DNA from: Paraspadella gotoi
Lineage: Eukaryota; Animalia; Chaetognatha
Length of the DNA stretch: 64,000 nt
Direction: 5' to 3'
NCBI GenBank assembly: GCA_051294375.1
Contig: CM119264.1
Coordinates: 7,275,814 to 7,339,813, forward strand
Shown: piece by piece, positions 18,789-42,762 of the stretch
Layout: each line of letters begins with the position of its first letter
Position numbering within the stretch: position 1 is the stretch's first letter
Notes under the pieces: generated by a model
Database searches by the model: none
Seen by the model: only the letters and a program-made list of their open reading frames with translations
Told to the model about the DNA's origin: nothing
Program-made: the position numbers and the translations under genes

Positions 18789-20769
18789 ATGGAGAGACGA
18801 TTGTTGAAGAAAAGACTTTCTATCGACTCGGAATTGATTTTCGAAAACCACAATCGTCGAGGCTCGTCAATCGGTAAATTAAAAGGACTGACTGACCGAT
18901 TTATTGACAATCAATTTGCTTAAAACTATTTAAAAAGTCAAAAAACTTTTTTTCGACGTCGTCCGTCAAAATAATCTTAAATTAGAAGCCAAAATTCACA
19001 AAAAAATCTTAAATTCAATTTGTCGATAAATCGATGAATCAATCAATCAATCAATCATTCCATCTATCTATCAATCACTTTCATTTATCGATAAATTAAT
19101 CGTGCTTGTTTGACTGCTTGGTTTATCCTCTTCCCGATAGACCCAGAGCCCGTCGGGCACGGGGCGGAGGCCGAGTGCGACTTCGTCCTCGCCGCCGCCT
19201 TCATCAGCGACGGCGTCAAGGGGCGAGGCGATTGGGGCGAGGCCTACGCGATGGGCAGAGGGCGTGGAGAAAGGCTCGCCTTTAGGATCGCCTACAATCC
19301 TTGGTTCATCAAGCGAGTGAAGAAAAACGTTTTCACTATTTCACTATTTCATCCGTGATGTTACAGAACGATTAGAAAAAACATTAATAATTGAATTATT
19401 GACACAATAAATGAAAGAATAATTAAATGAATCATAATTTTTTAGTATTAAATTATTAATATTTTTTTAAAAAATGAGTAATTGATTGTTTGATTAATTT
19501 ATCGCGTCGATTAAATAAATAAATGATTCCTTGATTTATATAGAAATCTATTGAGTAATCTATTGAGTAATTGATTGTTTGATTAATTTATCAGGTCGAT
19601 TAAATAAATAAATGATTCCTTGATTTATATAGAAATTATTGATCTATTGTTCGATCCATTACAGATTTATGTTCGTCGTCATCATCGTATTCAAACGCTC
19701 TGGCATTCTTCGAACCGCCTCGCCTCGTCCCCGACACTTCCTCCACTCAAAATCTCTCCTCCCCACTTCCAACCTCCTCCTCCCTCTCTCCTCCCCGCTC
19801 TCCTTCCTCCCCCACTTCCGTCTCCACCTCCTCCACGCCCACTTCCGTTCTGGCGCTCAACGCCGCTTGTCTCGTCGCCCTCGCCGTCGACGCCGGGCTT
19901 CACCTCTTTCTTTTCAAGTGGAAAAACTTTTGGAAGGCCGACGAGGCCAGGGGTCCGTGAAATTCGCGAGATTTAGTAAATTATGAATTAAGTTAATTTA
20001 ATTCAACTTGAATAAGTATTGAAAAAGTTCATTCATCCAATCCATTTAATCATTTATTCATGTATTCATTTCATCTTGATTTAATTTATTCCTTTATTCA
20101 ATATACATTCATTTTTATATTCATTCATTCATTCATTCATTCATTCATTCATTCATTCATTCATTCATTCATTCATTCATTCATTCATTCATTCATTCAT
20201 TCACTCATTCATTCATTCATTCATTCATTCATTCATTCTCTCTACCAATTTTCAGGCATCCGCATGCAGTCCATTCTTTTAATTTTCTTCTGCTTCGATC
20301 TATCTATCCTCGTGGCTCAAAATCTCTCGGGTCGCCCGGTTTTTTTGGCGGGAGATTCCAGGTTTCCTTACGGCGTCATACCCTTCAGGCGAGATTTTTC
20401 TTGACGAGAATTTTAGATTAAGCTTCAAATTTTTTAATTGCTATTTGCATAAATAAATAAATAAATGAGCGATGAGAGAACAGATGAATTGAATTCACGA
20501 ATAAAATGAATTAGAAAAGAATATAACTGTCAGAAAGAGCCGGTAGGACTTGGCAGCGGAGCACCTCCTCCTCATCATTCTCTTCCCCCTCCTCCCCCTC
20601 CAATAAAATAATTATTAATGAAAGAAAAAATAAGAAAAAAAAATAATAATAAGAAGTAAGTCAACGATGCACCCGTTATTCAGATGCCTGCGCGGTTTCG
20701 CCATCGCCTGCAAATCCCAAAATGTCGGACACGTTCTTCTCGTTTGCATCTCAACTTCGCGTCGTCTGG
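18789..20769 (+). CDS. Duplicate copy of exons 1-5 of the two-pore-channel-related gene
   Basis: Same exons as 22663-24635 (MERRLLKKRLSIDSE..., DFVLAAAFISDGVKGR..., GIRMQSILLIFFCFD..., HPLFRCLRGFAIACKS...), with an extra A in exon 3. Confidence 0.7.
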
Positions 20770-20889
20770 GTCAGTTCGGTCGCGACCCAAAATTAATTTT
20801 AACGAACGGGTTGAACATGGAATATTTTTAACGAATAATATATTACTCCTTCTGAGTGTGACTTTCCCTTTTCATTCTTTCTTATTATG

Positions 20890-21560
20890 AAATTGGCAAA
20901 ACCAATGTAAAAATATTCATTCATTTATTAAATAAATTATCTTTGGACAGGCTTTGGTGGTTTAAAATATCCATCACTCTTACAAGATAATGACATAGCA
21001 GGTCCCTGTAAGCTTTCAATCAAGACTCTCTCACAGTCTCGTTTATTCACTCCCAGTGTACCTGGCTTCCCTATCAATGAAGTGGAATAATATTATTTTA
21101 TTTTTTTTTATTTTATTTTATTATCTTGTAAGAGTGATGGAGGCCTTAACCACCAAAGCCTGTCCAAAGTCAGGGCACAGATAGCTTATTTATTAAATGA
21201 ATAGATAATTTTTATATTGGTTGTACCAATTTCATAAAATTCAGCTCCTTGTATTTTGATGCTAGTGCGGAGTACAATAAGTATTCCCCGATCTAATACT
21301 TAAGGGAGTGGTCTTTTCATACAATTGAAACATTCTTTGAAATATTATACCACTTCATTGATAGGGAAGCCAGGTACTCTGGGAGTGAATAAACGAGACA
21401 CTGAGAGAGACTTGATTGAAAGCTTGCAGGGACCTGCTATGTCATTATCTTGTAAGAGTGATGGAGGCCTTAAACCACCAAAGCCTGTCCAAAGTCAGGG
21501 GCAGGTTAGCTTATTTATTAAATGAATGGTAATTTTTATATTGGTTGTACCAATTTCATT
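20890..21560. mobile_element. Cluster of three full or partial copies of the ~230-bp repeat family in opposite orientations (also ~24755-25430)
   Basis: The copy at 20890-21090 is the reverse complement of the copies at 21120-21235 and 21340-21560. Confidence 0.75.
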
Positions 21561-21680
21561 TTAAATAATGTTTCTATTATTTTATTGAAATCTCTTACAT
21601 TTCGTTTTAATTACCTTTTGTACCTTCTTTCACCTCCCTCCTCTTCCTCTTCCCCNNNNNNNNNNNNNNNNNNNNNNNNN

Positions 21681-22662: not shown

Positions 22663-25600
22663 ATGGAGAGACGATTGTTGAAGAAAAGACTTTCTATCGA
22701 CTCGGAATTGATTTTCGAAAACCACAATCGTCGAGGCTCGTCAATCGGTAAATTAAAAGGACTGACTGACCGATTTATTGACAATCAATTTGCTTAAAAC
22801 TATTTAAAAAGTCAAAAAACTTTTTTTCGACGTCGTCCGTCAAAATAATCTTAAATTAGAAGCCAAAATTCACAAAAAAATCTTAAATTCAATTTGTCGA
22901 TAAATCGATGAATCAATCAATCAATCAATCATTCCATCTATCTATCAATCACTTTCATTTATCGATAAATTAATCGTGCTTGTTGACTGCTTGGTTTATC
23001 CTCTTCCCGATAGACCCAGAGCCCGTCGGGCACGGGGCGGAGGCCGAGTGCGACTTCGTCCTCGCCGCCGCCTTCATCAGCGACGGCGTCAAGGGGCGAG
23101 GCGATTGGGGCGAGGCCTACGCGATGGGCAGAGGGCGTGGAGAAAGGCTCGCCTTTAGGATCGCCTACAATCCTTGTTCATCAAGCGAGTGAAGAAAAAC
23201 GTTTCACTATTTCACTATTTCATCCGTGATGTTACAGAACGATTAGAAAAACATTAATAATTGAATTATTGACACAATAAATGAAAGAATAATTAAATGA
23301 ATCATAATTTTTTAGTATTAAATTATTAATATTTTTAAAAAAATGAGTAATTGATTGTTTGATTAATTTATCGGTCGATTAAATAAATAAATGATCCTTG
23401 ATTATATAGAAATCTATTGAGTAATCTTTGAGTATTGATTGTTGATTAATTTATCAGGTCGATTAAATAAATAAATGATTCCTTGATTTATATAGAAATC
23501 TATTGATCTATTGTTCGATCCATTACCAGATTTATGTTCGTCGTCATCATCGTATTCAACGCTCTGGCATTCTTCGAACCGCCTCGCCTCGTCCCCGACA
23601 CTTCCTCCACTCAAAATCTCTCCTCCCCACTTCCAACCTCCTCCTCCTCTCTCCTCCCGCTCTCCTTCCTCCCCCACTTCCGTCTCCACCTCCTCCACGC
23701 CCACTTCCGTTCTTGGCGCTCAACGCCGCTTGTCTCGTCGCCCTGCCCGTCGACGCCGGGCTTCACCTCTTTCTTTTCAAGTGGAAAAACTTTTGGAAGG
23801 CCGACGAGGCCAGGGGTCCGTGAAATTCGCGAGATTTAGTAAATTATGAATTAAGTTAATTTAATTCAACTTGAATAAGTATTGAAAAAGTTCATTCATC
23901 CAATCCATTTAATCATTTCATGTATTCATTTCATCTTGATTTAATTTATTCCTTTATTCAATATACATTCATTTTATATCATTCATTCATTCATTCATTC
24001 ATTCATTCATTCATCTTTATTCATTTATTCATTCATTCATTCATTCATTCATCATTCATTCTCATTCATTCATTCATTCATTCATTCATTCATTCATTCA
24101 TTCATTCTCTCTACCAATTTTCAGGCATCCGCATGCAGTCCATTCTTTTAATTTTCTTCTGCTTCGATCTATCTATCCTCGTGGCTCAAAATCTCTCGGG
24201 TCGCCCGGTTTTTTTGGCGGGAGATTCCAGGTTTCCTTACGGCGTCATACCCTTCAGGCGAGATTTTTCTTGACGAGAATTTTAGATTAAGCTTCAAATT
24301 TTTTAATTGCTATTTGCATAAATAAATAAATAAATGAGCGATGAGAGAACAGATGAATTGAATTCACGAATAAAATGAATTAGAAAAGAATATAACTGTC
24401 AGAAAGAGCCGGTAGGACTTGGCAGCGGAGCACCTCCTCCTCATCATTCTCTTCCCCTCCTCCCCCTCCAATAAAATAATTATTAATGAAAGAAAAAATA
24501 AGAAAAAAAATAATAATAAGAAGTAAGTCAACGATGCACCCGTTATTCAGATCCTGCGCGGTTTCGCCATCGCCTGCAAATCCCAAAATGTCGGACACGT
24601 TCTTCTCGTTTGCATCTCAACTTCGCGTCGTCTGGGTCAGTTCGGTCGCGACCCAAAATTAATTTTAACGAACGGGTTGAACATGGAATATTTTTAACGA
24701 ATAATATATTACTCCTTCTGAGTGTGACTTTCCCTTTTCATTCTTTCTTATTATGAAATTGGCAAAACCAATGTAAAAATATTCATTCATTTATTAAATA
24801 AATTATCTTTGGACAGGCTTTGGTGGTTTAAAATATCCATCACTCTTACAAGATAATGACATAGCAGGTCCCTGTAAGCTTTCAATCAAGACTCTCTCAC
24901 AGTCTCGTTTATTCACTCCCAGTGTACCTGGCTTCCCTATCAATGAGTGGAATAATATTATTTTATTTTTTTTTATTTTATTTTATTATCTTGTAAGAGT
25001 GATGGAGGCCTTAAACCACCAAAGCCTGTCCAAAGTCAGGGCACAGATAGCTTATTTATTAAATGAATAGATAATTTTTATATTGGTTGTACCAATTTCA
25101 TAAAATTCAGCTCCTTGTATTTTGATGCTAGTGCGGAGTACAATAAGTATTCCCCGATCTAATACTTAAGGGAGTGGTCTTTTCATACAATTGAAACATT
25201 CTTTGAAATATTATACCACTTCATTGATAGGGAAGCCAGGTACTCTGGGAGTGAATAAACGAGACACTGAGAGAGACTTGATTGAAAGCTTGCAGGGACC
25301 TGCTATGTCATTATCTTGTAAGAGTGATGGAGGCCTTAAACCACCAAAGCCTGTCCAAAGTCAGGGGCAGGTTAGCTTATTTATTAAATGAATGGATAAT
25401 TTTTATATTGGTTGTACCAATTTCATTTTAAATAATGTTTCTATTATTTTATTGAAATCTCTTACATTTCGTTTTAATTACCTTTTGTACCTTCTTTCAC
25501 CTCCCTCCTCTTCCTCTTCCCCTTCCACATCCCTTCCCCCTGCCCCTTCCCCCCCCCCAAAAAAGGTCGCGTCTTCATCGCCATCATCCTCCTCCTCATC

Positions 25601-25755
25601 TTCTACGGCGCCGCCGGCGTTCATCTCTTCGCCGGCGTCTATAATCAAGTCGTCGGCGCCGGCGCCTCCATTTCCGGGCTAACGACTCGGTTGACCGTGC
25701 AAATGTCACCCTTGCAGGTTATTGCAATTTGTCGAATGTCGTCCTTGTGGTCGGT

Positions 25756-25837
<82 letters not shown>

Positions 25838-28800
25838 AGAGAGAGAATAAAAGAATAATTATTTTTCTCGTCAATATACTTCAAAACAATTTATCATTAC
25901 ATCATTTTAAAAATTCAGAATAACGTTACTAAAATGACTGAATTTCCTTAATTAAAATCCATTCGCTATATAATCAGGCAAAGAGTCCGAAGCCGCCACT
26001 CAATATGTCGACGACAACAACAACAACAACGACGACAACTTCGAAAACTATCAATCCTACGGCGACGCCTTCGATCATCTCGGTTCAGCCCTCGTCGTCC
26101 TCTTCGTCCTTCTCACAACCGAGAACTACCCGGATGTAATGATACCCGCCTACAACGCCTCCGGATGGAATTTCTGGTGCGACGCCCTCTTTGCGGCAGT
26201 TGTTGTTGTTATTATTGTTTTTATTTACATGGTTTTATTTTGTTTACATCGTTTTTGTGAAACGTCACCTGTAGTTTGAGATGGTGATGAAAATGATGAT
26301 GAAGATGATCACACACTTCGGAGTAATGATAATGATAAAGCTTTGGATGATAAAGTTGACGATAAAGATTATGATGATGAGAATCCCGAGGACAAAAGAT
26401 GATGCCAATTGCAATGATATTATTGCTGCCGATGAAGACTAATTCATAGTCTTCATAGTCTGTGATGAAATATATAATAATGACGATGATAAAGTTGGTG
26501 ACGAAGACTTTAATAATAACGACGATGATGATAACGTTGACATCGCTGATATCGACTTTAATGATCAATGACATCAATGATAGCAAATGAACCCCCAATG
26601 TCACCGATGACAACTTGTAACGACCCCAGGTTCTTCGGCGTCTTCACCTTCATCGGCGTCTTCCTCGTGACGCCCGTCCTTCTCGCCATCATCGTCGACG
26701 CCTACTGGGAATTCTCCAAGAAGAAAGTCAAGTTGGAGAGAAAGAGGGAGAGGATGGCCTTCGCTAAGGCTTGGAACATCATTGATGTTGAAGGAACCGG
26801 GTCCTTGTCCATCAGGGATAGAAGGTAGAGGAAATGGGGGGGGGGGGTTATTCGCCAACGTTATATTTATGTCGTATTATACAACGGAGGAAAGGAAAAT
26901 AGATCGAGGAAAATAACTAACATATATTGAGCATTCTCGGTGATTAAACTAATTATAATTTATCTGATTTTGATAGTTTGATTTCTTTGATAATTTTAAA
27001 TTTTTCTTGCTGAAAGAAAATTGGTGGTAAATGGTGAAAAAGTCACTTCACATTTGTCTCCCTCACTTTCCCAACCTCCTTTCCTTCTCGGCCTTTCCTA
27101 TTTTCTTCCCCACCCATTCCCCACCCATTCCCCACCCATTCCCCACCATCCCTTCCCCAACCGCCCTCCGCGAATCCCCCATTTAAAAGATTCTTCAAGG
27201 TGCTGCAGACCTTCCGCTCCTCCTACTCCGACGAGGAAGTTGAGGAGATCCTCGACACGATCGACGAGAAGGGGGACGGCGTCGTCGACAGCTACGAGTG
27301 GACGGTCGGCCTCTACGACGCCTTGGCCATCGTCTTCGAAAAGGTACGATATTCTATAATTGTAACCGATTGTTGTTAATAATTCTTAAATAGATATAAT
27401 TTATATTATATAATTTAATATAATATATAATATATAATGTATAATTATATAATTTATATTATAAATTTTATTTTTCTCGTAGAAAAAAAAAAAGTGAATT
27501 TTATTTCTACTCTTTGTTTCTTAATTATAAAAAGAGATAACAGGGTGAGCTTTTGCCCGAAGAGGCTTAAAAAAAAAAAGATCATCGTGAAAAATTGTTT
27601 GAAATTTTTTTTTTTTATTCTTAATTATTAATAATTAATGTTTTGATACCTCATCTTTACGATACCTACGATTAAAGTGATTTGCTTCTGAACTTATTTC
27701 ACCATTTTAATGAAAAAATAAAAAAAACGTGATCTATGTGTCCAAATTGTCCCCTTCCCCCGCAGCTCCCGACTCCAGTGGTTTTCCTCAGCGGCCCCCT
27801 CTGGTGGCGCGAGCTCCGTCGAAAGGCTCGTCACCTCCTCTTCCTCCTCCCCCGCGTCGTCGTCTTCCTCATCATCACACACACGCTTCTCTTCTGCGTG
27901 CACTGGCACGGGATGGATCCCCGGGCGGAGATGGCGCTGCAGAGTCAGTGGCGGGATGTGGGGGGTATCCAAAGCAATTTAGCAATCAAATCAAATTAAT
28001 CATTCTTTTCCGTCAATCTCTCTATATATATATAAATCTAATTAATAATCTAACAAAACAAAATTCGATTCAAATTCCAATCATCCAGTCCTCAAGACCC
28101 TTCACGTGGCCTTCTTCGCCTTCGAGACTCTCCTCAAACTCCTCGGCCTCGGCGACGAACTCTTCGACGTCGTCGAGATCCTCGACGTCGTCCTCGTCGT
28201 CGTCGCCGTCGTCGCCGACGTCGCTTGGTTCCTCGTCGTCGAGGACGTGAGCCTCGTGCGCGGGAGGATGGACTTCAAGCCGCTCGTCACTTCCGTGCTG
28301 TCCAGGTGACGACGTTTGGTGACGAGGGTGTTGAGATGACGACGACGATGACGACGTCGAGGTAAATTTAACCAAAATGTCGGCGATGAAGAAAAGGGAT
28401 TTTTTTTTCTCGACCTTCTTTATAAGGACTACAGACTTTTAGTTTAATAAGTTCTATTTCAGTATTTAACTTTTATTAAAAGCCACGACTGATTAATGCA
28501 TTGGTTTATTTTAAAGGCTACACTAATAATTTTTTGCAATAAAGTCATTCACTTATTCAATAAACAAGCCATTATCTTTCCCATGACATTGAATTCTATA
28601 TTTTGATTTTAATCTTAAGCAGAAATCCTTCCTCTTTTTCTTTTCATCTGAACATTTCGAAAACATTTGTCATTTGATCTTTTTTAAGGCGTCAATCGAA
28701 ATTAAAGCGTAATGGGTTACATAAAAATTTTACAATTTTTTTACAGCACGGCCATTATTATTCGACTTTTATTCAACTCATATCAAACGAGGCGGGTGAT

Positions 28801-31800
28801 AAAAGTCGTCACGGAAATATTGCCAGTAGTTAAAGGTAAATCTTTGAAATATTAGGTCTTTTTCGTCGAGACGACAAATATTTCGATTGTCAGATTTGGT
28901 CGTGCTGATGCTCATTACTCTTTACTCTTTCGCCATCTTGGGAATGCAATGCTTTTTCGGTCGAGAGGCACCGGAAGAAAAAGTCTACGATTCAAGTCAT
29001 TTGGAATACAATTGTGGATTGGGGTTCGAATCGGTCACGTGAGTTTAATGTAGAAAAGAGGGGTATGCAAAATATGATGGGGTTGTATTAAGATCGAACA
29101 TTTTATTTGTATCTAATTCATGAAGAGAGTTGATAATATTTTTTGTCTTTTCCTAATAAATCAAAACATAACTTTTAGGTTGGAGTATGAGTAAGTTATT
29201 TTTTGCGATTTTATTAATCATCGAAAAGACTCCTTTCAAAAATTGAAAAAGTAATTTCGTTTACATAGAATTACCTAGTAAAATATATAATAGAACTTGA
29301 TTAAAAACTTGATTAAAAACCTGATCTTTGAACTACGTACAATTTCATTATTTTTTTTTACCTTTACCCCTTCAGTTGTTCCCTGCTGGTCGTATTCCAG
29401 ATGATGACCACTTCCAACTGGCACGACATCATGAACTCCGTCGTCGTTCAAACCTCCAAATGGAGTTCCATCTTCTTCATCTCCTGCTACGTCGTAGTCA
29501 ACATGGTCATCATGAACTTATTGGTCGCCATAGTGATTGGTAAGTAAAAACAAAGATATCGCGCCTCATGGGCTTAATACATACCAGGCTTCACCTATTT
29601 TCCATGCAGCGAAAATAGGAAATTATAGGCATTTTATCGGTCAACCACTGTTATTATCATTCATAAATTTTTTTTACAAATATCGTATATAAATCATGTC
29701 ATATCTCGTATGTATTGTCAAAAATTTCCCGGATAGGGTACGCTTCGATTGCGACTTTCAAAGTTTAATATCTGTTTTATTTCAAATTGACAGTTTCACA
29801 CAAAACTATAACTTCCAGGAGAGCCACCGAATCTGACCCCAAAAAACTTTAATAGCTCTCTAACCAATTAGAATTTCAATTTCAATTTCATTGATTCAAT
29901 ACAATCAATAATAGTGTGAGTTTTTATAGGTAGCTTCATCCCATGGCTATTGGCTAATTCAAAGTGTCTACCTAAATCAGCAAGGCAAAGTTCAGGTTGC
30001 TTTTTCAAGTTTACATCGGAGACTCCTATTATTTCCCGATCAACAATTTAGGTTACTTCCTTACTTCGATTGTCTCTGGCTTGTAATGGAACTGAAACCT
30101 GACTTAAAAGTTCTATTAATTCGGTGCAAGACAAAAAATAAAAATTGTCCCATTAGTCCTAATAATTCCCGGAAATTTTTTCTTACCAAAATCTACAATT
30201 TGGTACAATAAGGTGAAACTTATATAGGTCAACTAAATGACCAGGGAAAAATGACCGGACGCGAGATCACAAAATCTTTCAGTCAATGATGGTCGATACG
30301 CAAGTTCCCCAGACAGTTCCACGAGATAATTGAAGGACTTGAAGTTTGCTTTTCTGAATTTGGATTAAAGTTCGATTGAACAATTTTTCATCTCTTAGAG
30401 TTCTTGCATTTTGACTTCAGTTGCACCCCGCCATACCTTAAGTAATATTTGGTTGACACCCCTGATGAACCTTTGAAAGGCTTTGGTTTTGAGGCTGCTT
30501 TGATCTTGGTGTCGTTGAATAAAGTCAGGAACAATGATGCGATATTGATGGCGTTTTGTTGGCGGACGTTTTGATTATCCACATTTTCGGATTTCTGGAA
30601 AACTGGAAAGCTGCTGCGATGAAATTTCTTTGGTGCGGAATTCAAAAAAAGTTTTAAAAAGTGCTGGCTAATAATACTAAAATGTTTTTTCTATCATTTA
30701 AAAGTTGTTTCTTAAAAATCGGACAAAGAGTATAGAAAACGTTGTAGCACCAATGGTATATATAGGTTAGAGCGTTGAAAAATAACAAAATATAACAAAT
30801 CAAGTGAGGTACATAGCTATTTTAGTGTAATGTAGTCTGTAGAATTCGATGGTGATGACCATTTTTTGTATAATTTTATCTTTCTTGTCGTAAATGACGG
30901 TTTTTAATGTATATAAAATTGTTATAAAATAGCAAAAGCATTATAAGTTATGATAAATCAAATTATTAAAATTTTATAAAATTTATATGAGCTTTTGAAC
31001 TATAAAAATTAAGACTTATAAAAATATTTTGGTAAGTTTATTTCTAAATTTTATGTTTTATAAAAAGTTAGTTAACTATATTTATTAATAATTATGAGTA
31101 AAAATTAGGTTAAAGTTAAAAAAGAATAATTTCAAAATTTTTTTATGGATTTGCATTCTTTGCAAAAAGTTGATGTAAGAAAATAAAATTTTTATATCAA
31201 AATTATGTCATTAAGTGGGTCAAAATTCAGAAAAACTATAATTTTAAGCCAAAAATTGAAAAATTAAACAAAAATAATAATTTTTAATATTTTTAACCTA
31301 CTTAATGAAAGAATTTTTTAAAATGGATTATACTTTCTTATTATACTTTCTTACAACTTTTTGTAAGGAATTCAAATCCGGTTTTAAAATTTTAATTTTT
31401 GAATTTTTTCACTTTAGCTTATTTTTTATTATTATTTATTAATAAATATAGCTAACAAACTATTAATAAAATATAAAATTTGTAAATAAACTTACCAAAA
31501 TATTTATATGGGTCTTTATTTTAGTATTATGTAAATTAAATATGGCTTTTATAAAATCTTAATAATTTGAGTTTCTTATACTCTACAATGTTTGCTCCAT
31601 TTTAATAACACCTTATATGCTGCAAAAATCGCCATTTCCGACAAAGAGGATGAGACTATACAAAAAAATGGTTATCATCATCGAATTCTACAGACTTTAT
31701 TACACTAAAATAGCTATGTACCTCACTTGATTTATTATATTTCGTTATTCTTCAACGCCCTAATATAGGTGCTTCAACGTTTTCTTTGGGGTCAGTTTCC

Positions 31801-34800
31801 CTGGCTCTCCTGGTAAACAAAAAAACAAGGTAAAAGCTAATGATAAATAGAATGATAAATAGAATCGATGTCTGAAAAGATTTTCAGAACAGCCTTTAAA
31901 AAAGTAAAAAAGAAATCATCTTAGAAATATTACGATGTTTCAATTTTTGATCTGGTGTTAATAGTCTCGAAAAGAACTAATTACTATATTGTATAAAAAT
32001 AGGTTACAAACGTTGTAAGATGGATAGCCAAAGTCAGTATGCTTCCATAATCTGTGAACTCTGTTTCAAAAAAAAACATGTTAAAAAACTCATTTAAAAA
32101 AATAGTGACATTTTGTTGAGTTAGACAAACATCCAAGTTATTTAATGGCAGAAAACGAAAAAAATAGTCCAATATTACTATTTCTTGTGAATATGATGAT
32201 GAAAAAAAATTTGAGTAGAAAAAAAGTGGTTCGTTATCAAGTATTACTTTTTCAGGTTTCAACCAAAATTGAAAAATTAAAAAAATAATAAAATAACACA
32301 ATGAAACGGAAATGACGTATAAAAATTTGTATACTGGTAAAATTGTCGATCTGACTTTCATTAAGAAAGCTGGATAAATAAAGATTAGAAAAAGACTGAG
32401 AATAAAAAAAAAGGAAAAATTATCTTGAAAAACTAAGTAAACCAGAAGTTTATTGTGTATAGTTGCATAATCAATCATTTTCAGTTGAAAATCATCTTGA
32501 GACAATGTACAAAAATCTGTAATTTTTTTTTTAAGATACTGTCTAGTATTTTCACTTACTAAATGTAGAGTAAAAATCGAAGGTAAAATCAAAACTAATC
32601 CATTAAACGTTAACATAATTGTGCTAGAAAACTTTTTCACGATTCTCTGAACAATGTTCATGATAAAAACCACGATCATAATTAAATATAAATTAGACAA
32701 AATTCGTCCTAATTGATACATGACTCCTGCTGAAAAAGTTAGCATGCGCCGTAAATCTGACCTTCTGTTATTATCGACCAGTTTTGGCATCATTTCTTTA
32801 TATATTTTATGTTTTTCTTTGAAATTGAAACAAAATACGATCTGAATAATGATCAAATATAAGGTAGTCCCATACAGAAAAAAGTATGAAAAAATTATTT
32901 TTCGATTGCTTTTCGTAAAAAATGGCAAACTCCATAAATACAAAATGGCAAAAATTAAATCTATCAGTACAATTAACAAAAAAATGTCTACATCTTTAGG
33001 AAACAAATTGTGATTGCCCATTTTTAATCGATAAGTAAATTGACTTGAGTGATTTTCTAAAGATATGCACTGTTCTATATTCTTTATGCATTTAGAACAA
33101 CTGTTTAATTTTTCCCAATTTACAAGGCCCGATCCATAGTCAATTGTTACAAGACTGGTCGCAGATCCACTGAAATTCACCAAAAGGCGAGGAAACCTGT
33201 CAAGTTTGAGAAAGTGCAATCCAGAGGAGACACGTTCTTGAAAACTGTCCAAAAGCTCGCCAAAAAAAAAATTCTTTTCTAAACATAACATTCCGGACAA
33301 AAGTACAATAGAAAATGTTGGAGTTATCACAATTGTGTACCAGTAGGAGTCAGCCGAAAATCGTTTATACAACAATGTATCAATTTTTAAAAAAATTCTT
33401 CGGCAGCTAAAAGTCTAAAAACGAAAAAAGGTGCCACGACCAGTAAAATCATAGAATAGCTCCAAGCTTTCAGAAACACTACAGAGAGACAAGCTGTCAT
33501 ACCACACATTCCCTGAATCGTTCCTAAAATCATTGTTACATAAAATCGCTTTTGGCTAAGTTGAGCGCATTTGATCAGACATGTGGCGCGATAAATGGAC
33601 GCTGCTTTGGCGATGCTTAGTGTGGACAGCACCACGGAAATCACAGGGAAATAATTTCGGATTTTCCACCAACAAAAATACTCAAAAAATTCTTGGCAAT
33701 TGCAAGACTCGCTTAATAAGGAAATGACTCCATCAGCTTCCAAATGTAACAGGAAACCTTTATTGACTTCAAATGCGTTTAAGGTCAATGGAAAACACTG
33801 CACTGTGGTTCCTATTGTCTCCGACACCAGGAATGCTGCAGATTGTAATAAAATTTGAGGAAAGGCCTCGAAGATTGCGTGGATCATGTTTAGACAATTG
33901 AGCACCTCTTCTTTCTCTTTGGAGATTTGACATCTTTCTTTGACTAAAAGAGATGCAGAATTATTGTCTTGGTTGCTGCCATTGTTGTTGCTTTTTTTAT
34001 TAGAATAATTTTTTAAATTTTGATGGTCATATTTCGATTTATGGTCGTTATTTTCATCTATGCTGTCCGCAGACATTTTGTCCAGATATTGATCAATGGC
34101 AAAGACTTCTGAAGCTAAACCCACAATGGATGCAGCCAAAGTCCAAGCTCTTTGTACATTGCCTCCAACAAGTCTCCCATAATTGTTGCTGCATCGATGA
34201 AGAATTCTCAAAGAATAGCTCGTCGAGATGACGCAGTGACAGAGCACAATGCAGAAGGTCATAATGCCCAAAATCTTGTAAGACCAGGCCGGTGAAGAAA
34301 TAGCTTGGTAGCCGGCCTGAAAGTCTGTGGCGATATCTAGCACATTGAGAGACGATGACATGACCAGAATCACCAAGTGGATATTTATCATTTTTCAGTT
34401 TTCAATGACTGTGAATTTAAATATTAAATAATCAAAAAATTGAAAATGTTGAATTAACATTAAGGTTGAACAGGTGAAAAAAAAAGTTTCGAGATTTATC
34501 TTGTAGAAATTATAGAAAATTTTTTTTAGAAAATTTAAATTTTTATCATATTCTGATAGAGCTTAAAAAGTTAAATAAAACTTTACAAACATTTAATATT
34601 TTTATTAGTCAATGAAAGATATTATTTTTTTTATATTTTTTGACTCACTTATTGTCAATTTTAAATAAAAATATAATAATAATGTATATTGTGTGAAATC
34701 CTTTCTGACATTATGAGAAAAGTTTAGCCCACCTTGAAGAATATAATTGCTCGGGGACTTGCCTCCTCCGTTTTTTGGAAATAAGAGGAAGTAAGATTGG

Positions 34801-37283
34801 AAGCAAGATGGAGGCGGCGCGAACGGAAACTCGCTCAACGACGACGCCTGACTTAGTTGGGCGAAAGCCATTCAAGCCAATCGTAAGTCTCAGCTTGAGT
34901 CCTTTTGTCTCGAGGGTCTTCTTTTGTTTGGAACGATCGTCGTCCTTCTTTCTTCGCCTGCGAACGACGTCTATGATTTTCCAGCGATGTTTTGTTTAAA
35001 CGTTGAATGTTTATATAATATTGAAAAAGGCCCATGCTTCCATCACTACGGCAAAGAACCCCTGGGGATCGAGACTAAAGGGACCTCGCTCCGTATATAC
35101 TATTTCAAGTTCGTTGTGTTTGATAATAGACGAAAATAACGTAAATATTTGTTTATTTACAACAACGGTAGAGTTTATTAATCGTACATGTTTCGGGTTT
35201 GTTACAAGCCTTCTTCGGTGCTTTTTGACAATTGTGAAAATAGCATACAGAACTAAAAATAAAAGAAGAAAAAGTGGTTCCAGAGGGATTCCTCCCAAAG
35301 AAATTCCGTCCCACACAGGATTCCTCCCGCACGGGACTAAGAGGTGAACTTAGGTAATATTTTGCCTGATTAACTGAGCAAAGTGTTCTGAAATTGCCTA
35401 GGTAAAGAAATGATTTTTCTTAATAAAATATAGGCAATTTATGAATCAAAATATTTTGCTTATATTTATTTTTAAAGATAAATAAAACAATATATTATGG
35501 CAACAGCCGGGTTGCCTGTGATGCCCATTGGGATGGGCATCTCACTGTTGGCTTTGGGGCTTCCGACCCTCAGTGACGCCTCCAGTCACTGGCGCGGTTA
35601 CCCTAGGACGGTCTCGCTTCGCCAACGCAGAGGGAAGTCGTTAGGACTGTGGATGGAACACTACACTTGGGATGGTGTGTTCCCCCTCTGAGCCAATGGA
35701 TTTGGCTGAAGGATGGTGGACGTGAGGCGGTTGTGAATATACCGCCACAGGATCCCCGGCCAAGACATCACTCAGGTTCCTCAAGCCTGAGAGGTGTCTG
35801 ACAAGACTGTTACCATAGTGGGAGAAGAGGAAAGAGAGAGCGCGAGTTGTGGGGGCATAGGCGTTTGTCGTAGCGTACCCCAGGGGCATAGGCGTTTGTT
35901 CGTAGCGTACCCGAAGTTGGCAGGGCATAGGCGTTTTGTCGTAGCGTACCCTGAGAAGGTTGCGTGTTCGATAGTAGGGCTCACCACTTATGGCAACAGC
36001 CGGGTTGCCTGTGATGCCCATTGGGATGGGGCATCTCACTGTTGGCTTTGGGGGCTTCCGACCCTCATGACGCCTCCAGTCACTGGCGCGGTTACCCTAG
36101 GACGGTCTCGCTTTGCCAACGCAGAGGAAGTCGTTAGGACTGTGGATGGAACACTACACTTGGGATGGTGTGTTCCCCCTCTGAGCCAATGGATTTGGCT
36201 GAAGGATGGTGGACGTGAGGCGGTGTGAATATACCGCCACAATATTTTCTTTTATTGTTTTAATTTCGTTATCAACTATATTTTCAATTTGTTATTACTA
36301 TATTTTAAGCCCAAAAATACTTTTCCTAGATGGTATGAAATATGATTATCAATAGTAGCATGGCATTAAGTCTGTAATCTACTTGGCTACTACCAGAACC
36401 AGAACCAATAAAATTATTAAGGAAGATTAATTAATTGATATTAATTAATTAATTCATTAATTAACAGATAGTAAAGAAATTAGTAATAACAATGAGGATG
36501 CATACATTTAAAGAGATTTGCAATGTACGTAATTCAGTTGTATCCTGATATGATTGACAAGATTAAAACCTCGATCAAAGATGATGTAACAATGTACCCA
36601 AGACTCAAGTCGCCCATAAATATTTTGTATCTTATTAAAAATGGCAAAGCTTACTAGAATTCTATGCAGAATATGATATGGATTACTCAATACCTCCCAA
36701 GCTGATTATATTAAAAATTCGAGCTCAATATAGAAAGTAAATATCCTATGGATATAATTTTCAAATATTGTGTTGTTTCTTACTTTCGTTGTGTTTTTAA
36801 GATTTGGAGAGAAAAGAATTTCTTTAACAACAACGACTTTTATTATGATTAAACATACATGTTTCGACTTAATTTGCAAATCTTCATCAGTGCTTATTTA
36901 ATTTTGATAATACATAATTTTTGTTTCACAAGTAAACAGTGAGAAGGATGGAGGGAAAGAGAGAGAGAGAGAAAATAAATGTTTCTAACAAAGAAATAAA
37001 AAAGGACAGTGGTCAGTTTTGAGGATAGGGTAAGTTTGAGCAGAGAGAGAGAAGGTGGTGAAAAGAAATTAGAATTTGGCAGAGAGAGAGAGAGAGAAAG
37101 ATGCAGAGGTCAACAATTAGATCAATACATTATACATCTTATACATCTTATACATTATTCATCTTTCTTTCTCTCTGCCAAATTTCAATTTCTTTTCCTC
37201 ACCACCTTCTTTCTCTCTGCTCAAACTTACCCTATCCTCAAAGCTGACCACTGTCATTTTTTTAATTCTTTGTTGGAAACATT

Positions 37284-37326
<43 letters not shown>

Positions 37327-40300
37327 CATCCCTTTCACTGTTTACTTGTGAAACAAAAAATTATGTACTATCAAAACTAAATTAGCACTGATAAAGACTT
37401 GCAAATTAAATCAAAACATGTATGTTTAATCATAATAAAAAACATTTTTGTTAAATTTTTTTTCTCTAAAAATCCAAAAAAGTTTTTCTTCTATTTTTTC
37501 ATCATTAACAAAGATTTTAACTCAAAATAAAAAATTGAATTTCAATGTTGAGCAAATTAAAGTTTTATATTTAATAAAGATTTTGTTTAAAAATTAATAC
37601 CGAAAAATATCCTATTTTGTAATTTTTTTAATTTTAAATTTAATTTAATATTAATTGGTTTTAAATTATTGAAGAAAATATTTCCCTTTTAAATCTTAGC
37701 AAATTAGATCATAAGTTTGTCAGTTATATCTTAGTTTTAAAGCTCCTTTCCTCAATTAAAAATTGCCTACTTTTATTCAGTTAACTACTAGGTAAACCAA
37801 AAAATTGTCTATTACCTATTTAAGAAAAAAATTTTGCCTACGTTCACCCCTTACACGGGACACCTCTTAACACAGTTCATATTTGGTATAAAAGTAAGGT
37901 AAAATAAGACCTTTAAGTTAAAGGTTTAACTTGCATATATATCATAAATATTGCCGACTGTATACGGAAAACTGAGGGTGTTAATAAATAGAATAAACGC
38001 TATTTATATTAAAAATCTACGCGCGATTGTTTTGATGTGGATGGAGTGACGTCGTGAGAACACTGATCGTAAATCTTGAAATTTTAGAACAAGTTTCCAT
38101 GGCTAACAAGTTTCCCAAAATGTTTTTTTTTCTTTTTCCCAGAGGCTTACAACAAATGGATCGCGAGTACCGACTCGAGTCGATCCTCCAACGACTCCAA
38201 TTTGATGGGAAATCGACCCGACCTGACGAGCAGCTTGGAGTCCTCGACGAGACGAGAGAGGGAAGCGGGCAGCTTCAAAGTCTTCAACAATAATAACCAC
38301 AATAAAAAGGTTTTCGTATATACATATGGGGATAAGGCACTAAGCGTAGCCAAGGGATCATTGTGTTTAGAGGTTTACCTGGTTACTAAATCTCTCTCTC
38401 TCTCTCTCTCTCTCATCATCTTCTCTCGTCTCTACCTCTCCTCTCCCTCTGCCACCTGGTTAATCCTCCGCTCTCTCACGTTACTCTCAGTCATGTACAC
38501 ATACTTTTAATGTCTCTCTGACTCTGTATCACCAATAATCGTTTTAACAATTAAGCATTTTCAATCTCCTAAACAGTTGAACACCGTAACACTCGGCATC
38601 TTCCACTCCGTCTCCAACGTCTTCGCTTCCTCCAAAGAAGCGGAGAAGAAAGAGCTGGAGCAGAGGAGAGACTCCAACCGGAGAGAGTCGAGGAGAGACT
38701 CGACGATCCCCTTGCACGAAGAGATGCTCAACGAGGGAAGGAGGAAGTCGTTTGCGCCGCGGACGGCCATCTTGGGAAAGGAGGTTCGGAGACGGTGCTT
38801 TTGTGTGGTTTGTTGTTATTGTTGGTTTTTTTGTTGTATTTATAGATGGATGGTTGATAGTTGAGAAACGTTGAGTGCATTTGACAATGTTATTGCATAT
38901 AATTGAGAATAATTTATCGTCTTGAAACGTAACACAGAATTCATGATTATGTAATATGTATGTAAATAAATGTTTTTCTTATTTAAGTCAACAATTGAGT
39001 ATCTTTTTTTGTTGGATTTCTCTGAACGACTTTCTTCCTTACTCAGGACATCTTGCAAAAGCTATCGGTTGCGCAAATAAAGGAGTTGCAAGCGATGAAC
39101 CAAGAGCAAGAAATGAGGCTGCAGAAGGAGGACGTTGAGGATTACGCCGGTCTCTCGCCTCAAGAAAAGAGGGAAAAGATGATGAGAAAAAGATTTAAAA
39201 GGAAAAAGGAGATGACTGGCTTGAAGATCGTCGCCGTTGTGGCTCACAGGTATGAAATAGAAATTCGATCTATTTATTTATTGTTTGTTGGAATAAAATT
39301 GATGATAACGATTTGAAAAAAAAAAAAATCGATTGAATGATAAATTTCTGAATTGATAGAATTCCGATTAATTTGATTGATTGATTCCGATTGACGTCGC
39401 AGAAAAAAGTCGGACGACGAGTTGATGCTTCACGTTGGAGACGAAGTGACGCTAATCGAAGACGGAGGCGGGGGGTGGTGGATGGGGGAGGCGAGGGGAA
39501 AGGAGGGACTCTTTCCCTCTTACAAAGTAGAAGCCAGGGGGGCGCACAGGTGAAGAAATGAACGAAGGGCGTTAGTGAATTGTACCGTGGAGTTCTCGTT
39601 GGGGAAGAATTACGTTTTAAGTTTTAAGAATTAGGATTTGACCTAACAGGCTATTGCGTCAATTGCAACAGCAACGGATGAGAGCCAATCAACCAGACAT
39701 CAAAGAATCGCTCAGCGGAGAAAATTCCGACGAAGATTCCGCGAACGATTCGGGCAAGGTTTCTCCGAGAAATTCCACCAGAGATTCGGCCAAAGATTCG
39801 GCCAGAGATTCGGCCAGAGATTCGGCCAGAGATTTTGAGGACAGGGGAAAAAGAATTCGTACCGAATCGACGTCGACGACTAACAGCGAGGGGATCAGGT
39901 CTGTCTCTGTCTCTGTAGTTTCGGGCTTGGCCGTTTTTTTTTCTTCTTTACGAAGATTTTTCTCTTGCCTATAAACAAAAAACATTTTGTAAATAATTAT
40001 GAACTTTCTCTTGCCAGATTCAAGGGACTCGTAAATCTGAAATTGGAAGATCAGAAGAGACACTCCGATCCAGTCGTCTTGGAGGAATTGCGACAGTCGC
40101 TCAAATCTGGTGAGGAATCTTATTCGTCTGAAGTTTAAAGAATTGGTTAATTAATTATACACGCGAAGTCCTAAACTGATAAATAAACCGACATAAAGTG
40201 AACGAATTCGCGAAAAATCTAACCGATCGATCGTTCCAACCAGGGGGCGGCCTCCGTCAACCGCGACGCAAGGATCTGGATTGGCGTCGAAGTCTTCATC

Positions 40301-41612
40301 GCGGGAAGATCACCGTCATGAATCCCGAGGAGGCCATCGAACTCAACAGGATGTTCAAGAGCGGCTTGAAGGGTGGGCCAGTCGCGCAGAAAGTCACGGA
40401 CAAATTTCCAACGCTTTGCTATACCTTTCTTTTAAAATATATTTTCATTTTCATCGTCATTTATCATCATTATCATATCACCGTCATAATCATCATGGTC
40501 AATCATCATCATCATCATCATCTTCTTGATCCAGGCGGCGGTGGAGACGTTGCCTCGTTGGGCGGAGCTTGGTTGGCGGCGACTCGCAAAGACTTTCCAT
40601 CTGGGGTTAGTATTAATCAATATCGCATAGTGTTCGTATTATTATTATTTTTCTTAGTAGTATTATTTCACTGCCTTGGTAAAAATCAGGAAGAAAAAAT
40701 GTTTATATTGAAAAATACGTTCTCCGTTGTTTTTATATGTACTTTATTTACTTCTCTTTATTTAATGCATAAAAACGACCCAATTTTAAGGGACCGACCA
40801 TTTCACCGCCCTCACCGCCGCCTTCGCCGCCTTCATCGCCGCCGCCACCGTCGCCGCCGACGCCGCAAACGCCGCCGTCTCCCGCCTCCGAAGACCAGGA
40901 AGAAGTCGCCGAGATTCACCGGAAAATCCCACAGCTGCCGAAAATCAACGTCGACCTCACTGCCGGAATGGTCAGTCAGTCGATCTGTCCGTTAGCTCGT
41001 TTGTTCGTTAATTATTTAATTAATTAATTAATTGATTATTTCGATCCTTTATGTAATCTTTTTGCCATCCAACTCATCATTCTATCCATCCATCCATATC
41101 CATTCGTCCGTCCATCCATCTTTCCATCAAATGACCAGTTGGACGACATCGAAGAAGACGAAGAGGAAAGGCGACAATCGACGATCGATTCGCTTCACGT
41201 TCCTCCCTTGACGAGAGAGGAAAAGGAGAAAAGCAAAGGTAAGGAGAGAAGATGGGAGTATCTGAGAGAGGACAAGAAGAAAAGCAAAGGTGAGGAAAGA
41301 AGATAGGAGCAGAGAGATGAAAAGGATAAAAGGTAAAGCAAAGCAAAGCAGAACAAAGAAAGGACGGGGGAAGCAGATGCCGGAGCTGAGACAGCGGAAA
41401 GTAGGAACGGACTTTGGCAGAGGAAAATTCTCCTAATTATTTCTTGCTTTGGGACAATGGAGACAAAGGAAGAAAGAGCGGAAGTTATGCCTCAGCGTTG
41501 TGCAGCTATTGTTAGTTCCGTTATTACTCGTTTTTTTTTCCTTTTTGCCGAGAAGCGTACTCGATGATTATGTTCCTTCTCTTTTATGTTCAACATGCTT
41601 AAAAAAGCTTTC

Positions 41613-41688
<76 letters not shown>

Positions 41689-42762
41689 GGGAAACAAAAG
41701 AGCAAAGAGATTCCCGAGTGGGCAAAAAATTTCATGGCCAAAATGGAAACGGAGAAACTGAAGGAAAACAAAGGGGCTTTGAAGACGTCGTCGGAGATTA
41801 AATCGGAGGCTACGCCGGTTTCACCCGAGGCAACGCCGGTTCCATCGCCGACAACGCCAGTTCCGACGCAATCGAATCCTGTGCTTCCCCAAAGGCCTTC
41901 GTTTCCAGCGCCGCCTCGACCTTCGCCGCCCGCGTCTGAGCTTCAATTCAACCCAACGAAGCCGTCTTCATTAATGTCAACAATGGCGCAGCCCACTCGA
42001 CCGACGACGACGAATAAAGAGAAAAAAGCAGAGATGACGACGACGACGATGACGACGATAACGCAGACGATAGCACCGACAATAAGGGCAGCAAGGGAAC
42101 AAGATATTATGGAAGAGGAAAACGATTCTATCCCAGCGCAAACAAAGATCAAAGGGATTCCACCTCTAACGATGGCGGATCCTCCACCAAGTAATACGAC
42201 GACGACGTCAATAGAGACTTCGACTGAAAGTGAAGACGCCGTAACCGACTATCGTTCGACCAATCAGAATACGAGACTTTCAAACGCCGCGTCTTCGTCG
42301 TCCTCAACGACCAATGAGCTGTCGTCGATCGACTACAAGGGCAATCGCCGGCTCAGCAACAATTGTCCCTCTATCGACGATAAAACGGAACTTTCCTTGG
42401 CGCCCGTGGAATCGACGAATCGAGAAGCGAAGTTTGTGTCTTCGAACAATGACGACACCCTTTCGGTCGACGCCAATCGGCAGCCGGCGCCGTTGTCTCC
42501 GTCGACCAATCAGGAAGCGAAAAATCGAAACAAGCGAATCGCGCGGATTCAGAGAACCAAAGCTACGCCGAAACGAATTTTGATTGGTTCCGAAGACGAC
42601 GACGACGATGGCGAATCGGGCGTCGTCAACCGAGGATTTCGATCTTCGGTGGCGATGGACAAAGAGGACAATAACAACAACGACGACAACGGCCAACTCC
42701 CGAACACAGATGACGATTGTATAGATCTCTCGGAGTTGCTCGTTGTGAAAGAAAGGAAGTAA
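22663..42762 (+). CDS. Two-pore channel-related protein (2x6TM) with EF-hands and a C-terminal SH3 domain, ~25 exons, ~1600 aa
   Basis: Exons (approx.): 22663-22747, 23014-23184, 23530-23815, 24125-24230, ~24525-24635, 25566-~25650, ~25978-26176, 26630-26824, 27190-27343, 27766-27943, 28089-28305, 28747-28835, 28894-29038, 29376-29539, 38143-38309, 38577-38783, 39047-39249, 39403-39549, 39650-39898, 40018-40109, 40244-40372, 40535-40605, 40791-40970, 41139-41238, 41690-42762. TPC hallmarks: LAAAFISDGVKGR, NALAFFEPP, LFVLLTTENYPDVMIPAY, LLAIIVDAY, FAILGMQCF, FQMMTTSNWHDIM, MNLLVAIVIEAY. The 5' exons carry a few 1-nt indels that differ between the two duplicated copies. Confidence 0.88.
29815..31813. 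mobile_element. ~2-kb non-autonomous TIR element
   Basis: Imperfect ~30-bp terminal inverted repeats: CCAGGAGAGCCACCGAATCTGACCCCAAA (29815) vs TTTGGGGTCAGTTTCCCTGGCTCTCCTGG (ending 31813). No clear TSD and no intact ORF. Confidence 0.6.
30734..31785. repeat. ~1.05-kb imperfect palindrome (fold-back)
   Basis: The arms are reverse complements along their length (e.g. aatcaagtgaggtacatagctattttagtgtaa vs ttacactaaaatagctatgtacctcacttgatt); centre near 31255. Confidence 0.88.
31984..33375 (-). CDS. 463-aa multi-pass hydrophobic ORF; probable C-terminal continuation of the XK-family ORF
   Basis: A long open frame in very AT-rich DNA with many hydrophobic segments. It begins 11 nt past the stop of the upstream ORF, in the -1 frame, with a TTG rather than ATG at its annotated start. 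Confidence 0.6.
   Translation of the reverse strand: MLYKRFSADSYWYTIVITPTFSIVLLSGMLCLEKNFFFGELLDSFQERVSSGLHFLKLDRFPRLLVNFSGSATSLVTIDYGSGLVNWEKLNSCSKCIKNIEQCISLENHSSQFTYRLKMGNHNLFPKDVDIFLLIVLIDLIFAILYLWSLPFFTKSNRKIIFSYFFLYGTTLYLIIIQIVFCFNFKEKHKIYKEMMPKLVDNNRRSDLRRMLTFSAGVMYQLGRILSNLYLIMIVVFIMNIVQRIVKKFSSTIMLTFNGLVLILPSIFTLHLVSENTRQYLKKKITDFCTLSQDDFQLKMIDYATIHNKLLVYLVFQDNFSFFFILSLFLIFIYPAFLMKVRSTILPVYKFLYVISVSLCYFIIFLIFQFWLKPEKVILDNEPLFFYSNFFSSSYSQEIVILDYFFRFLPLNNLDVCLTQQNVTIFLNEFFNMFFFETEFTDYGSILTLAIHLTTFVTYFYTI
33387..34391 (-). CDS. XK-related (XKR/CED-8 family) membrane protein, intronless, nested antisense in the channel intron
   Basis: N-terminal LDIATD helix, HAIFEAFPQILLQ (family motif ExxPQxxLQ) and ISVVLSTLSIAK helix occur in the expected order. 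Confidence 0.75.
   Translation of the reverse strand: MINIHLVILVMSSSLNVLDIATDFQAGYQAISSPAWSYKILGIMTFCIVLCHCVISTSYSLRILHRCSNNYGRLVGGNVQRAWTLAASIVGLASEVFAIDQYLDKMSADSIDENNDHKSKYDHQNLKNYSNKKSNNNGSNQDNNSASLLVKERCQISKEKEEVLNCLNMIHAIFEAFPQILLQSAAFLVSETIGTTVQCFPLTLNAFEVNKGFLLHLEADGVISLLSESCNCQEFFEYFCWWKIRNYFPVISVVLSTLSIAKAASIYRATCLIKCAQLSQKRFYVTMILGTIQGMCGMTACLSVVFLKAWSYSMILLVVAPFFVFRLLAAEEFF
35496..36241 (-). mobile_element. Miniature LTR retroelement (TRIM-like)
   Basis: Two ~254-bp near-identical direct repeats (35496-35749, 35989-36241) start TGTGGCGG on the minus strand. The ~240-bp non-coding interior has three ~33-bp repeats. A PBS (TGGTGAGCCC) adjoins the 5' LTR, and ATAT(T) is duplicated at the flanks. 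Confidence 0.85.
36800..37475. mobile_element. ~680-bp palindrome of two inverted Penelope-type terminal segments
   Basis: Arms ~36800-37103 and ~37159-37475 are reverse complements; each carries a hammerhead-like motif and an AG-rich tract. Confidence 0.7.
36850..36896 (-). ncRNA. Minimal type I hammerhead ribozyme motif
   Basis: Minus strand reads TAAGCA-CTGATGA-A-GATTTG-CAAAT-TAAGTC-GAAA-CATG-TA-TGTTTA: intact core, 6-bp stem I, 6-bp stem II, palindromic ACATGT in place of stem III, and a GUA cleavage triplet. Confidence 0.7.

Follow-up and report, generated by a model that had tools for sequence, protein, structure and literature searches.

A 64,000-nucleotide stretch of the genome of the chaetognath Paraspadella gotoi (contig CM119264.1; hereafter the window) carries on its forward strand, between positions 22663 and 42762, a gene of 25 exons whose predicted product of ~1,620 aa comprises two channel repeats joined by an EF-hand linker and, after them, an SH3 domain with a long tail. 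As judged from sequence comparison, this protein almost certainly belongs to a distinct family of two-repeat channels outside the two-pore channels (TPCs) TPC1 and TPC3. The combination of channel and SH3 domain is, by the same comparison, not a local fusion but the mark of an old family reaching back to choanoflagellates, because channel plus SH3 is found in most homologue matches and in three choanoflagellate proteins. What is new here is apparently an undescribed two-repeat channel family; the fold was already known, and the proteins are in databases.

A two-repeat channel continued by an SH3 domain and a long tail

The DNA of the window is eukaryotic and AT-rich, its exons having a higher GC content, and the gene was modelled from frame translations and splice-site scans (Table 1). 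Exons 7-25, which run from 25978 to the stop codon at 42762, have no internal stops, match in phase and are bounded by AG and GT in 19 of 19 cases, while exons 2 and 4 require GC donors. Exon 14 ends at 29539 (G/GTAAGT) and joins exon 15, which starts at 38143 (cag/AG), with phase 1 on both sides; the junction completes the second S6 as LLVAIVIEAY, the counterpart of which in the first S6 is LLAIIVDAY. The first-pass annotation, made from the letters of the window, had described this in-phase S6 junction over an 8.6-kb intron and a tail portion of ~850 aa, and both descriptions are borne out, as the splice ends, phase and motif are as given there and the portion 3′ of the big intron counts 872 codons.

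To compare the model with transcripts, we used one public sequencing run, presumed (as a guess) to be RNA, against positions 27700-42950. The run contains 51% of the sampled words of 38100-42900, where the exon share is 55%. Six listed pieces of a 3476-base contig start exactly at model exons 15, 16, 17, 19, 23 and 25, and the gaps between them agree with the unlisted exons; the contig is therefore spliced. The 488 bases that it has upstream of exon 15 correspond in number to the sum of exons 12-14 and 91 bases of exon 11, and the 91-base point in exon 11 is the place where a repeat would break a contig. At a contig depth of 11.2, and with those exons only, the depth bins that hold exons 12-14 are expected at 5.15 and 3.61 and were found at 5.21 and 3.58, and a third bin agreed as well (4.92 against 4.86). 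From these lengths and depths in one run we infer that the spliced contig bridges the 8.6-kb intron. Several points weigh against this bridge: two of the five depth bins lie above expectation (9.97 against 4.55 and 3.85 against 3.01), where other contigs overlap; the bridge comes from a single run whose RNA origin is presumed; the row for the 29539/38143 junction is not among the contig rows listed; and transcript support is confined to exons 11-25. With exon frames continuous, the single gene of channel, SH3 and tail proposed in the first-pass annotation is nevertheless supported. That the channel transcript instead stops in the big intron, with the SH3 exons forming a separate downstream gene, would suit an intron of 8.6 kb that holds two long antisense open reading frames (ORFs) and repeats. 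It is extremely improbable in view of the in-phase splice that completes the S6 motif, the length and depth arithmetic of the contig, and the presence of both parts in one chain in 24 of 30 homologue matches.

The big intron has features of its own. The overlapping, intronless ORFs at 33387-34394 and 31984-33414 on the reverse strand have 335 and 476 codons, respectively, with about 5 hydrophobic segments in the first and about 7 in the second, and may be a nested gene or a retrocopy with a frame break. A Pfam scan of both gave nothing useful; the 335-codon ORF, which had no Pfam match, has an E..PQ motif of the kind seen in XK-related proteins. A 255-base tandem repeat at 35495-36241, very deep in the compared run, is likely the end of a mobile element.

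Conservation of the SH3 domain and tail

The SH3 domain of the first-pass annotation is confirmed by an SH3_1 match of 41.3 bits (E 1e-10) from 39404-39547 alone, well above the Pfam cut-off of 22.9; the domain as a whole (39221-39532) is interrupted by a phase-2 intron at 39250-39402. The charged helix before it, the SH3 domain and the motif of exon 21 align in exon order with homologues, across the big intron, and all three are kept from choanoflagellates to amphioxus. A regular expression for the exon 21 motif matches 12 of 19 animal rows, some of the records ending early. The 636 aa that follow the SH3 domain are 10% proline, 11.5% serine and 8.6% threonine, and the Pro-rich tail described earlier is accordingly Pro-rich in part and not over its whole length. 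The tail contains two PxxP matches, one of class I and the other of class II, and chance would give as much. Taken together, the SH3 domain and the tail motif point to a putative conserved protein partner.

An old family in animals and choanoflagellates

Pfam domain searches were run on single exons (Table 1). A homologue search with exon 8 returned one longer protein, P0001, with 59% identity and with channel and SH3 domain in a single chain, and the search with P0001 found Ion_trans plus SH3 in the 24 of 30 matches referred to above. These span Lingula, Owenia, Branchiostoma, eight echinoderm genera, Nematostella, Rhopilema, Corticium and two further records, and thus sponge, cnidarians, brachiopod, annelid, echinoderms and amphioxus. 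Oscarella, Tubulanus, Sycon and ten choanoflagellate proteins came in addition from a profile-free library search and from looking up names; Ion_trans plus SH3 also occurs in Oscarella and Tubulanus, and an SH3 match was obtained in three of the choanoflagellate proteins (Codosiga, one of Salpingoeca infusionum, and Hartaetosiga). The first-pass annotation had suggested looking for the architecture in other holozoans, where it is now found. About 200 proteins were fetched and names looked up for 30 representative matches; no vertebrate, arthropod or nematode was named among the matches, the searches being word-limited, so that absence is not implied.

The database names of members are ‘uncharacterized’, ‘TPCN1’, ‘TPC1-like’ and ‘sodium channel’, and the ESM Atlas holds a 70-member cluster named ‘TPCN1 protein’ of which 96% have SH3. 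A literature search over titles, abstract starts and passages, with subscription papers and supplements largely outside its reach, returned no description of an SH3-bearing two-repeat channel, in agreement with the earlier remark that no functional description was known. Of the novel system that had been put forward, the distinct subfamily stands, whereas the family itself proves to be old, already databased under automatic names, and a variant of a known channel type. Separately, P0028, P0060, P0073 and P0081 are two-repeat channels with similar filters that are fused to cyclic-nucleotide-binding domains.

Placement outside TPC1 and TPC3

Two repeats of six transmembrane segments (6-TM) lie in one chain with an EF-hand-type linker, and solved TPCs are the best structural matches of an AlphaFold model of P0001 (mean predicted local distance difference test score, pLDDT, 67). 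Similarity to any one TPC is low: against the solved mouse TPC1, human TPC2 and TPC3, the Lingula member obtains 58, 52 and 82 bits, respectively, and its best TPC score, ~100 bits, is against Arabidopsis TPC1, while real invertebrate TPC1 and TPC3 score 600-680 bits against their own type.

Two trees agree with each other, a fast one of 80 rows and an IQ-TREE reconstruction of 45 rows and 567 columns, from which long or unnamed branches had been dropped. The window protein clusters with 11 animal proteins (support 96/91), and with one further record at 100/98, the tree placing it no more precisely than within this animal clade. The SH3-bearing choanoflagellate group adjoins this clade (94/90), and both lie, with a second choanoflagellate group, a haptophyte and Sycon, in a 100/99 clade that counts 10 choanoflagellate proteins. 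A different clade, supported at 100/100, contains TPC1, TPC3 and plant-like TPCs, and the four-repeat halves make up a third; a topology in which the family is constrained to join animal TPC1/TPC3 is rejected by the approximately unbiased (AU) test (p-AU 0.0002). Some features of these trees call for caution. The IQ-TREE tree was built under LG+G4, with no mixture model, on divergent sequences; the group given to the AU test was picked after viewing the first tree; and the rows include no TPC2 and no named TPC-related (TPCR) protein, the comparison with TPC2 being by score alone (52 bits). The distinct subfamily of the first-pass annotation is thereby upheld by phylogeny against TPC1, TPC3, plant-like TPCs and four-repeat halves, and against TPC2 by score.

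We also considered whether the protein could be a rapidly evolving TPC1, TPC2 or TPC3 whose SH3 domain was acquired in this lineage, as the labels ‘TPCN1’ and ‘TPC1-like’ of several members and a tree without TPC2 might suggest. This is highly improbable, since the tree, the AU test, the filter motifs and the low scores against the three solved paralogues all oppose it, and the SH3 domain is already present in choanoflagellate members.

A separate family outside TPC1 and TPC3 raises the matter of TPCR. Rahman et al. 2014 reportedly defined TPCR as a clade of unicellular eukaryotes (S. rosetta, Capsaspora, Thecamonas). A search with a protist-weighted alignment yielded 15 proteins, for the most part four-repeat channels and TPC1s, with no named TPCR among them. 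Passages of several papers describe TPCR as a unicellular clade with a filter like that of voltage-gated calcium (CaV) channels (PMC4278181, PMC6259924, PMC8490419), and passages of a 2026 review put the number of TPCs in animals at three and state that TPCR genes are not found there (PMC12839299); three TPCs are likewise listed for sea urchin and lophotrochozoans in passages of another paper (PMC7312350). By these descriptions, the family appears rather likely to lie in the same clade as TPCR, probably as its animal branch.

Filter, voltage sensor, lipid site and EF-hands

Filter residues were counted over 17 animal, 10 choanoflagellate, 19 canonical TPC and 12 four-repeat-half rows, and residues of S4, linker and EF-hands over 19 animal, 10 choanoflagellate and 9 TPC rows. 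Filter I of the window protein reads TTENYP, and its glutamate aligns with the E/D found in 12 of 12 halves of CaV and voltage-gated sodium (NaV) channels; it is present in 15/17 animal, 9/10 choanoflagellate and 1/19 canonical TPC rows. Canonical TPCs have asparagine at the filter II position (19/19), and one choanoflagellate member, from Barroeca, has an acidic residue at the filter position of both repeats. Second lophotrochozoan paralogues in Lingula (P0024) and Owenia (P0048) have serine in place of the filter I glutamate.

The second S4 retains R5 alone in 19/19 animal rows, with R3 and R4 missing, and the basic pair of the first S4-S5 linker is absent from 19/19 animal rows and present in 6/6 TPC1 rows; most choanoflagellate rows retain basic residues in this linker. 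In mammalian TPCs, according to passages of a published study, voltage dependence hinges on the R3 arginine, and phosphatidylinositol 3,5-bisphosphate, PI(3,5)P2, is bound by lysines of the linker (PMC6424560). Position 1 of EF-hand 2 is aspartate in all 19 animal rows, 11 of which pass a strict ligand rule, and in plant TPC1 calcium sensitivity is conferred by the EF-hands, as stated in part of a preprint (10.1101/041400).

Proposed channel mechanism

Based on these residues, we moderately favor a model in which the protein would form a dimeric calcium-permeable cation channel gated by cytosolic calcium together with tail-binding proteins, and not by voltage or PI(3,5)P2. Two subunits would make one pore, as in all solved TPCs, and the filter ring of the dimer would hold two acids, from the repeat-I glutamates, at the position used by calcium channels. 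Two acids at this ring suggest calcium permeability, for which we see a reasonable though far from decisive case, and which would come without strict selectivity. Loss of the R3 and R4 arginines would abolish voltage gating; such gating is unlikely because the second S4 keeps R5 only and R3 is the deciding residue in mammalian TPCs; the channel is thus probably voltage-independent. Loss of the linker basic pair would similarly abolish lipid gating, EF-hand 2 may serve as the calcium sensor, and the SH3 domain, the charged helix before it and the tail motif may tether or regulate the channel.

Several observations count against parts of this model. In filter II (TTSNWH) the corresponding position is serine in 14/17 animal rows, and not an acid, so that the ring would be CaV-like by half. 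EF-hand 1 is degenerate in 19/19 animal rows, the EF exon of the window scores below Pfam cut-offs, and its EF-hand 2 fails the strict rule at position 3, a rule that 3 of 9 canonical TPC rows pass. This failure and these passes therefore leave calcium gating just above even when set against structural EF-hands, and as a claim in its own right it is tentative, falling a little short of an even chance.

Alternatively, the same family may have EF-hands that are structural, as in mammalian TPCs, and be opened or kept closed by a protein partner through the SH3 domain and tail, or act as a constitutive leak. The degenerate EF-hand 1 of every animal row and an EF-hand 2 that is imperfect in 8/19 rows, the window included, would fit structural EF-hands, as would mouse TPC1, in which the C-terminus is described, in passages of the study, as wrapping a calcium-blind EF domain (PMC6424560); gating by partners would fit the conservation of SH3 domain, preceding helix and tail motif from choanoflagellates to amphioxus. 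Yet an invariant aspartate at position 1 and a full ligand set in 11/19 rows exceed the needs of a purely structural fold, and we consider this alternative possible but somewhat unlikely, retaining the calcium- and partner-gated channel as our model.

A duplicated 5′ region and the probable origin of the frame breaks

Exons 2, 3, 5 and 6 contain single-base frame breaks (indels) in the assembly, a point absent from the first-pass annotation. A second copy of the promoter and of exons 1-5 lies upstream (Table 1), and the two copies are 98.8% identical over 3868 columns, with 40 gap columns against 6 mismatches. The duplicate is without the breaks of exons 2, 3 and 5, its exon 2 being in frame as far as the GC donor, and carries a different break of its own elsewhere; the most plausible reading of the breaks in these three exons is therefore one of errors in the consensus where contig ends overlap. 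For exon 6, which lies outside the second copy, we infer an assembly error too. Frame breaks in four exons could also mark this gene copy as a pseudogene, which is very improbable given that three of the breaks are missing from the overlapping copy, that gap columns outnumber mismatches 40 to 6, that exons 7-25 are intact, and that a spliced contig exists.

A comparable pattern is seen downstream, where 43666-50552 and 55189-61843 form a 7-kb direct duplication of 90% identity (544 gap columns against 169 mismatches) that begins just past the second N gap and is probably an assembly overlap or a second haplotype.

Neighboring genes and a possible ciliary role

The neighbors of the channel gene, together with an X-box-like site, weakly hint at a ciliary role. 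An RIIa-domain gene lies head-to-head with the channel gene, ~650 bases apart, a gene with sperm-tail PG-rich repeats is next upstream, and the X-box-like site falls in the gap shared by the divergent genes. The site departs from the RFX consensus at 2 positions. A role at the cell surface in cilia or sperm flagella, and not in endolysosomes, would be in keeping with these neighbors and with named matches from choanoflagellates and marine invertebrates. We nonetheless regard it as unlikely: the site was spotted before testing and may serve the neighbor alone, the neighborhood evidence comes from this genome alone, and a term search of the main text of a preprint on the cilia proteomes of sea urchin, anemone and choanoflagellate found TPC unmentioned there (10.1101/153437).

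Elsewhere in the window, a DnaJ domain exon (E 1e-24) lies at 63440-63853 on the forward strand, and copies of a short inverted-repeat element resembling a miniature inverted-repeat transposable element (MITE) lie at 24753-25433, in intron 5, and at 15157-15392.

Table 1 Coordinates of the channel gene and neighboring features in the window
Feature	Positions	Strand	Content
Two exons of ODF3-like gene	15940-16864	-	Sperm-tail PG-rich (SHIPPO) repeats
Second copy of promoter and exons 1-5	17802..21655	+	Ends at assembly N gap; likely contig overlap
RIIa-domain gene, first exon	21798-22013; duplicate 17921-18134	-	Best solved match 9d5n_CR, E 5e-4
X-box-like site	22473-22486; duplicate 18599-18612	+	2 mismatches; 0.16 expected per window
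Exon 1	22663..22747	+	Start codon (start inferred), short N-terminus
Exon 2	23014..23184	+	Conserved N-terminal helix LAAAFISDG.KGRG; GC donor; one base missing here
Exon 3	23530..23815	+	Repeat I S1-S2; frame break in this copy
Exon 4	24125..24257	+	Repeat I S3; GC donor
Exon 5	24551..24635	+	Repeat I S4 and S4-S5 linker, without PI(3,5)P2 basic pair; one base missing here
Exon 6	25566..25717	+	Repeat I S5 and turret; one-base frame break inferred, outside duplicate copy
Exon 7	25978..26176	+	Pore helix and filter I TTENYP (26115-26132); Ion_trans E 3e-6
Exon 8	26630..26824	+	Repeat I S6, long helix, degenerate EF-hand 1; 59% identity to P0001
Exon 9	27190..27343	+	EF-hand 2, loop 27263-27298, lysine at ligand position 3; EF-hand_7 E 0.003, below cut-off
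Exon 10	27766..27943	+	Repeat II S1
Exon 11	28089..28305	+	Repeat II S2-S3
Exon 12	28747..28835	+	Repeat II S4, single arginine (R5 position)
Exon 13	28894..29038	+	Repeat II S5
Exon 14	29376..29539	+	Filter II TTSNWHD (29407-29427) and repeat II S6; Ion_trans E 2e-11
Phase-1 intron, 8.6 kb	29540..38142	+	
Exon 15	38143..38309	+	End of S6 (EAY) and tail start; spliced contig positions 489-654
Exon 16	38577..38783	+	Spliced contig and frame
Exon 17	39047..39249	+	Conserved charged helix DYAGLSPQE...KKRFKRKK; first SH3 strand from 39221
Exon 18	39403..39549	+	Remainder of SH3, to 39532; SH3_1 E 1e-10
Exon 19	39650..39898	+	Spliced contig and frame
Exon 20	40018..40109	+	Frame; length agrees with spliced contig
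Exon 21	40244..40372	+	Conserved tail motif WRR..G.ITVMN.EE..ELN (~40282-40360); tblastn E 3e-5 from Lingula
Exon 22	40535..40605	+	Frame; length agrees with spliced contig
Exon 23	40791..40970	+	Pro-rich; one class I PxxP match
Exon 24	41139..41238	+	Frame; length agrees with spliced contig
Exon 25	41690..42762	+	Low-complexity tail, stop

Discussion

We speculate, with considerable reserve, that animals kept a fourth two-repeat channel of TPCR type, a relative of the ancestor of calcium and sodium channels, which would be calcium-permeable, voltage-blind, equipped with an SH3 scaffold, used in ciliated cells from choanoflagellates to amphioxus, and lost in vertebrates. If so, this fourth channel may explain calcium signals in sea urchin and starfish that are at present attributed to TPC1-3. 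Passages of reviews count three animal two-pore channels and place TPCR in protists only (PMC12839299, PMC7312350), a picture that a further widely kept family, with its CaV-like glutamate in the filter, would correct. Sea urchin, starfish, Nematostella and amphioxus would become animal models for a channel type that has been proposed as similar to the two-repeat CaV and NaV ancestor, and questions of the selectivity and gating of TPCR-type channels would become testable in animals. Members mislabelled as TPC1-like or as sodium channels may also be hidden in existing expression data.

The family resembles TPCR in its two repeats, in forming a clade apart from TPC1-3 and plant TPC, in its unicellular holozoan members, and in a CaV-like acidic filter position, which in the window protein is the repeat I glutamate, repeat II being non-acidic. 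It differs from TPCR in being present in animals, where passages of the 2026 review say that TPCR is absent (PMC12839299), and, going by the descriptions seen in part, in its SH3 domain, which those of TPCR do not mention, and in the restriction of the acid to repeat I in most members. With animal TPC1, TPC2 and TPC3 it shares two 6-TM repeats, the N-terminal helix, the EF-hand-type linker and the predicted fold, whereas its filters are TENYP and TSNWH instead of TAN and VNN, its second S4 is without R3 and R4, its linker is without the PI(3,5)P2 basic pair, and it has an SH3 domain, an 870-aa tail and a clade of its own.

Arabidopsis TPC1, the best structural match, likewise has an EF-hand linker, one that in the window protein possibly binds calcium. 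Plant TPC1, however, is voltage gated through repeat II, as described in part of a preprint (10.1101/041400), and has neither the filter glutamate nor an SH3 domain, and plant-like TPC rows cluster with canonical TPCs and not with the SH3-tailed family. CaV and NaV channels have their E/D at the position of the filter I glutamate, and repeat II matches CaV3 repeat II by sequence, but the family has only two repeats, nearly uncharged S4s and a separate clade. Diatom TPCL (PMC11085791) and apicomplexan TgTPC (PMC8490419) are, in passages of the respective papers, also divergent two-repeat clades outside TPC1-3 with altered filters. Both are described there as being without EF-hands, with no SH3 domain mentioned in those passages, and it is these descriptions, TPCL and TgTPC being absent from the tree, that set them apart from the SH3-tailed family (PMC11085791, PMC8490419).

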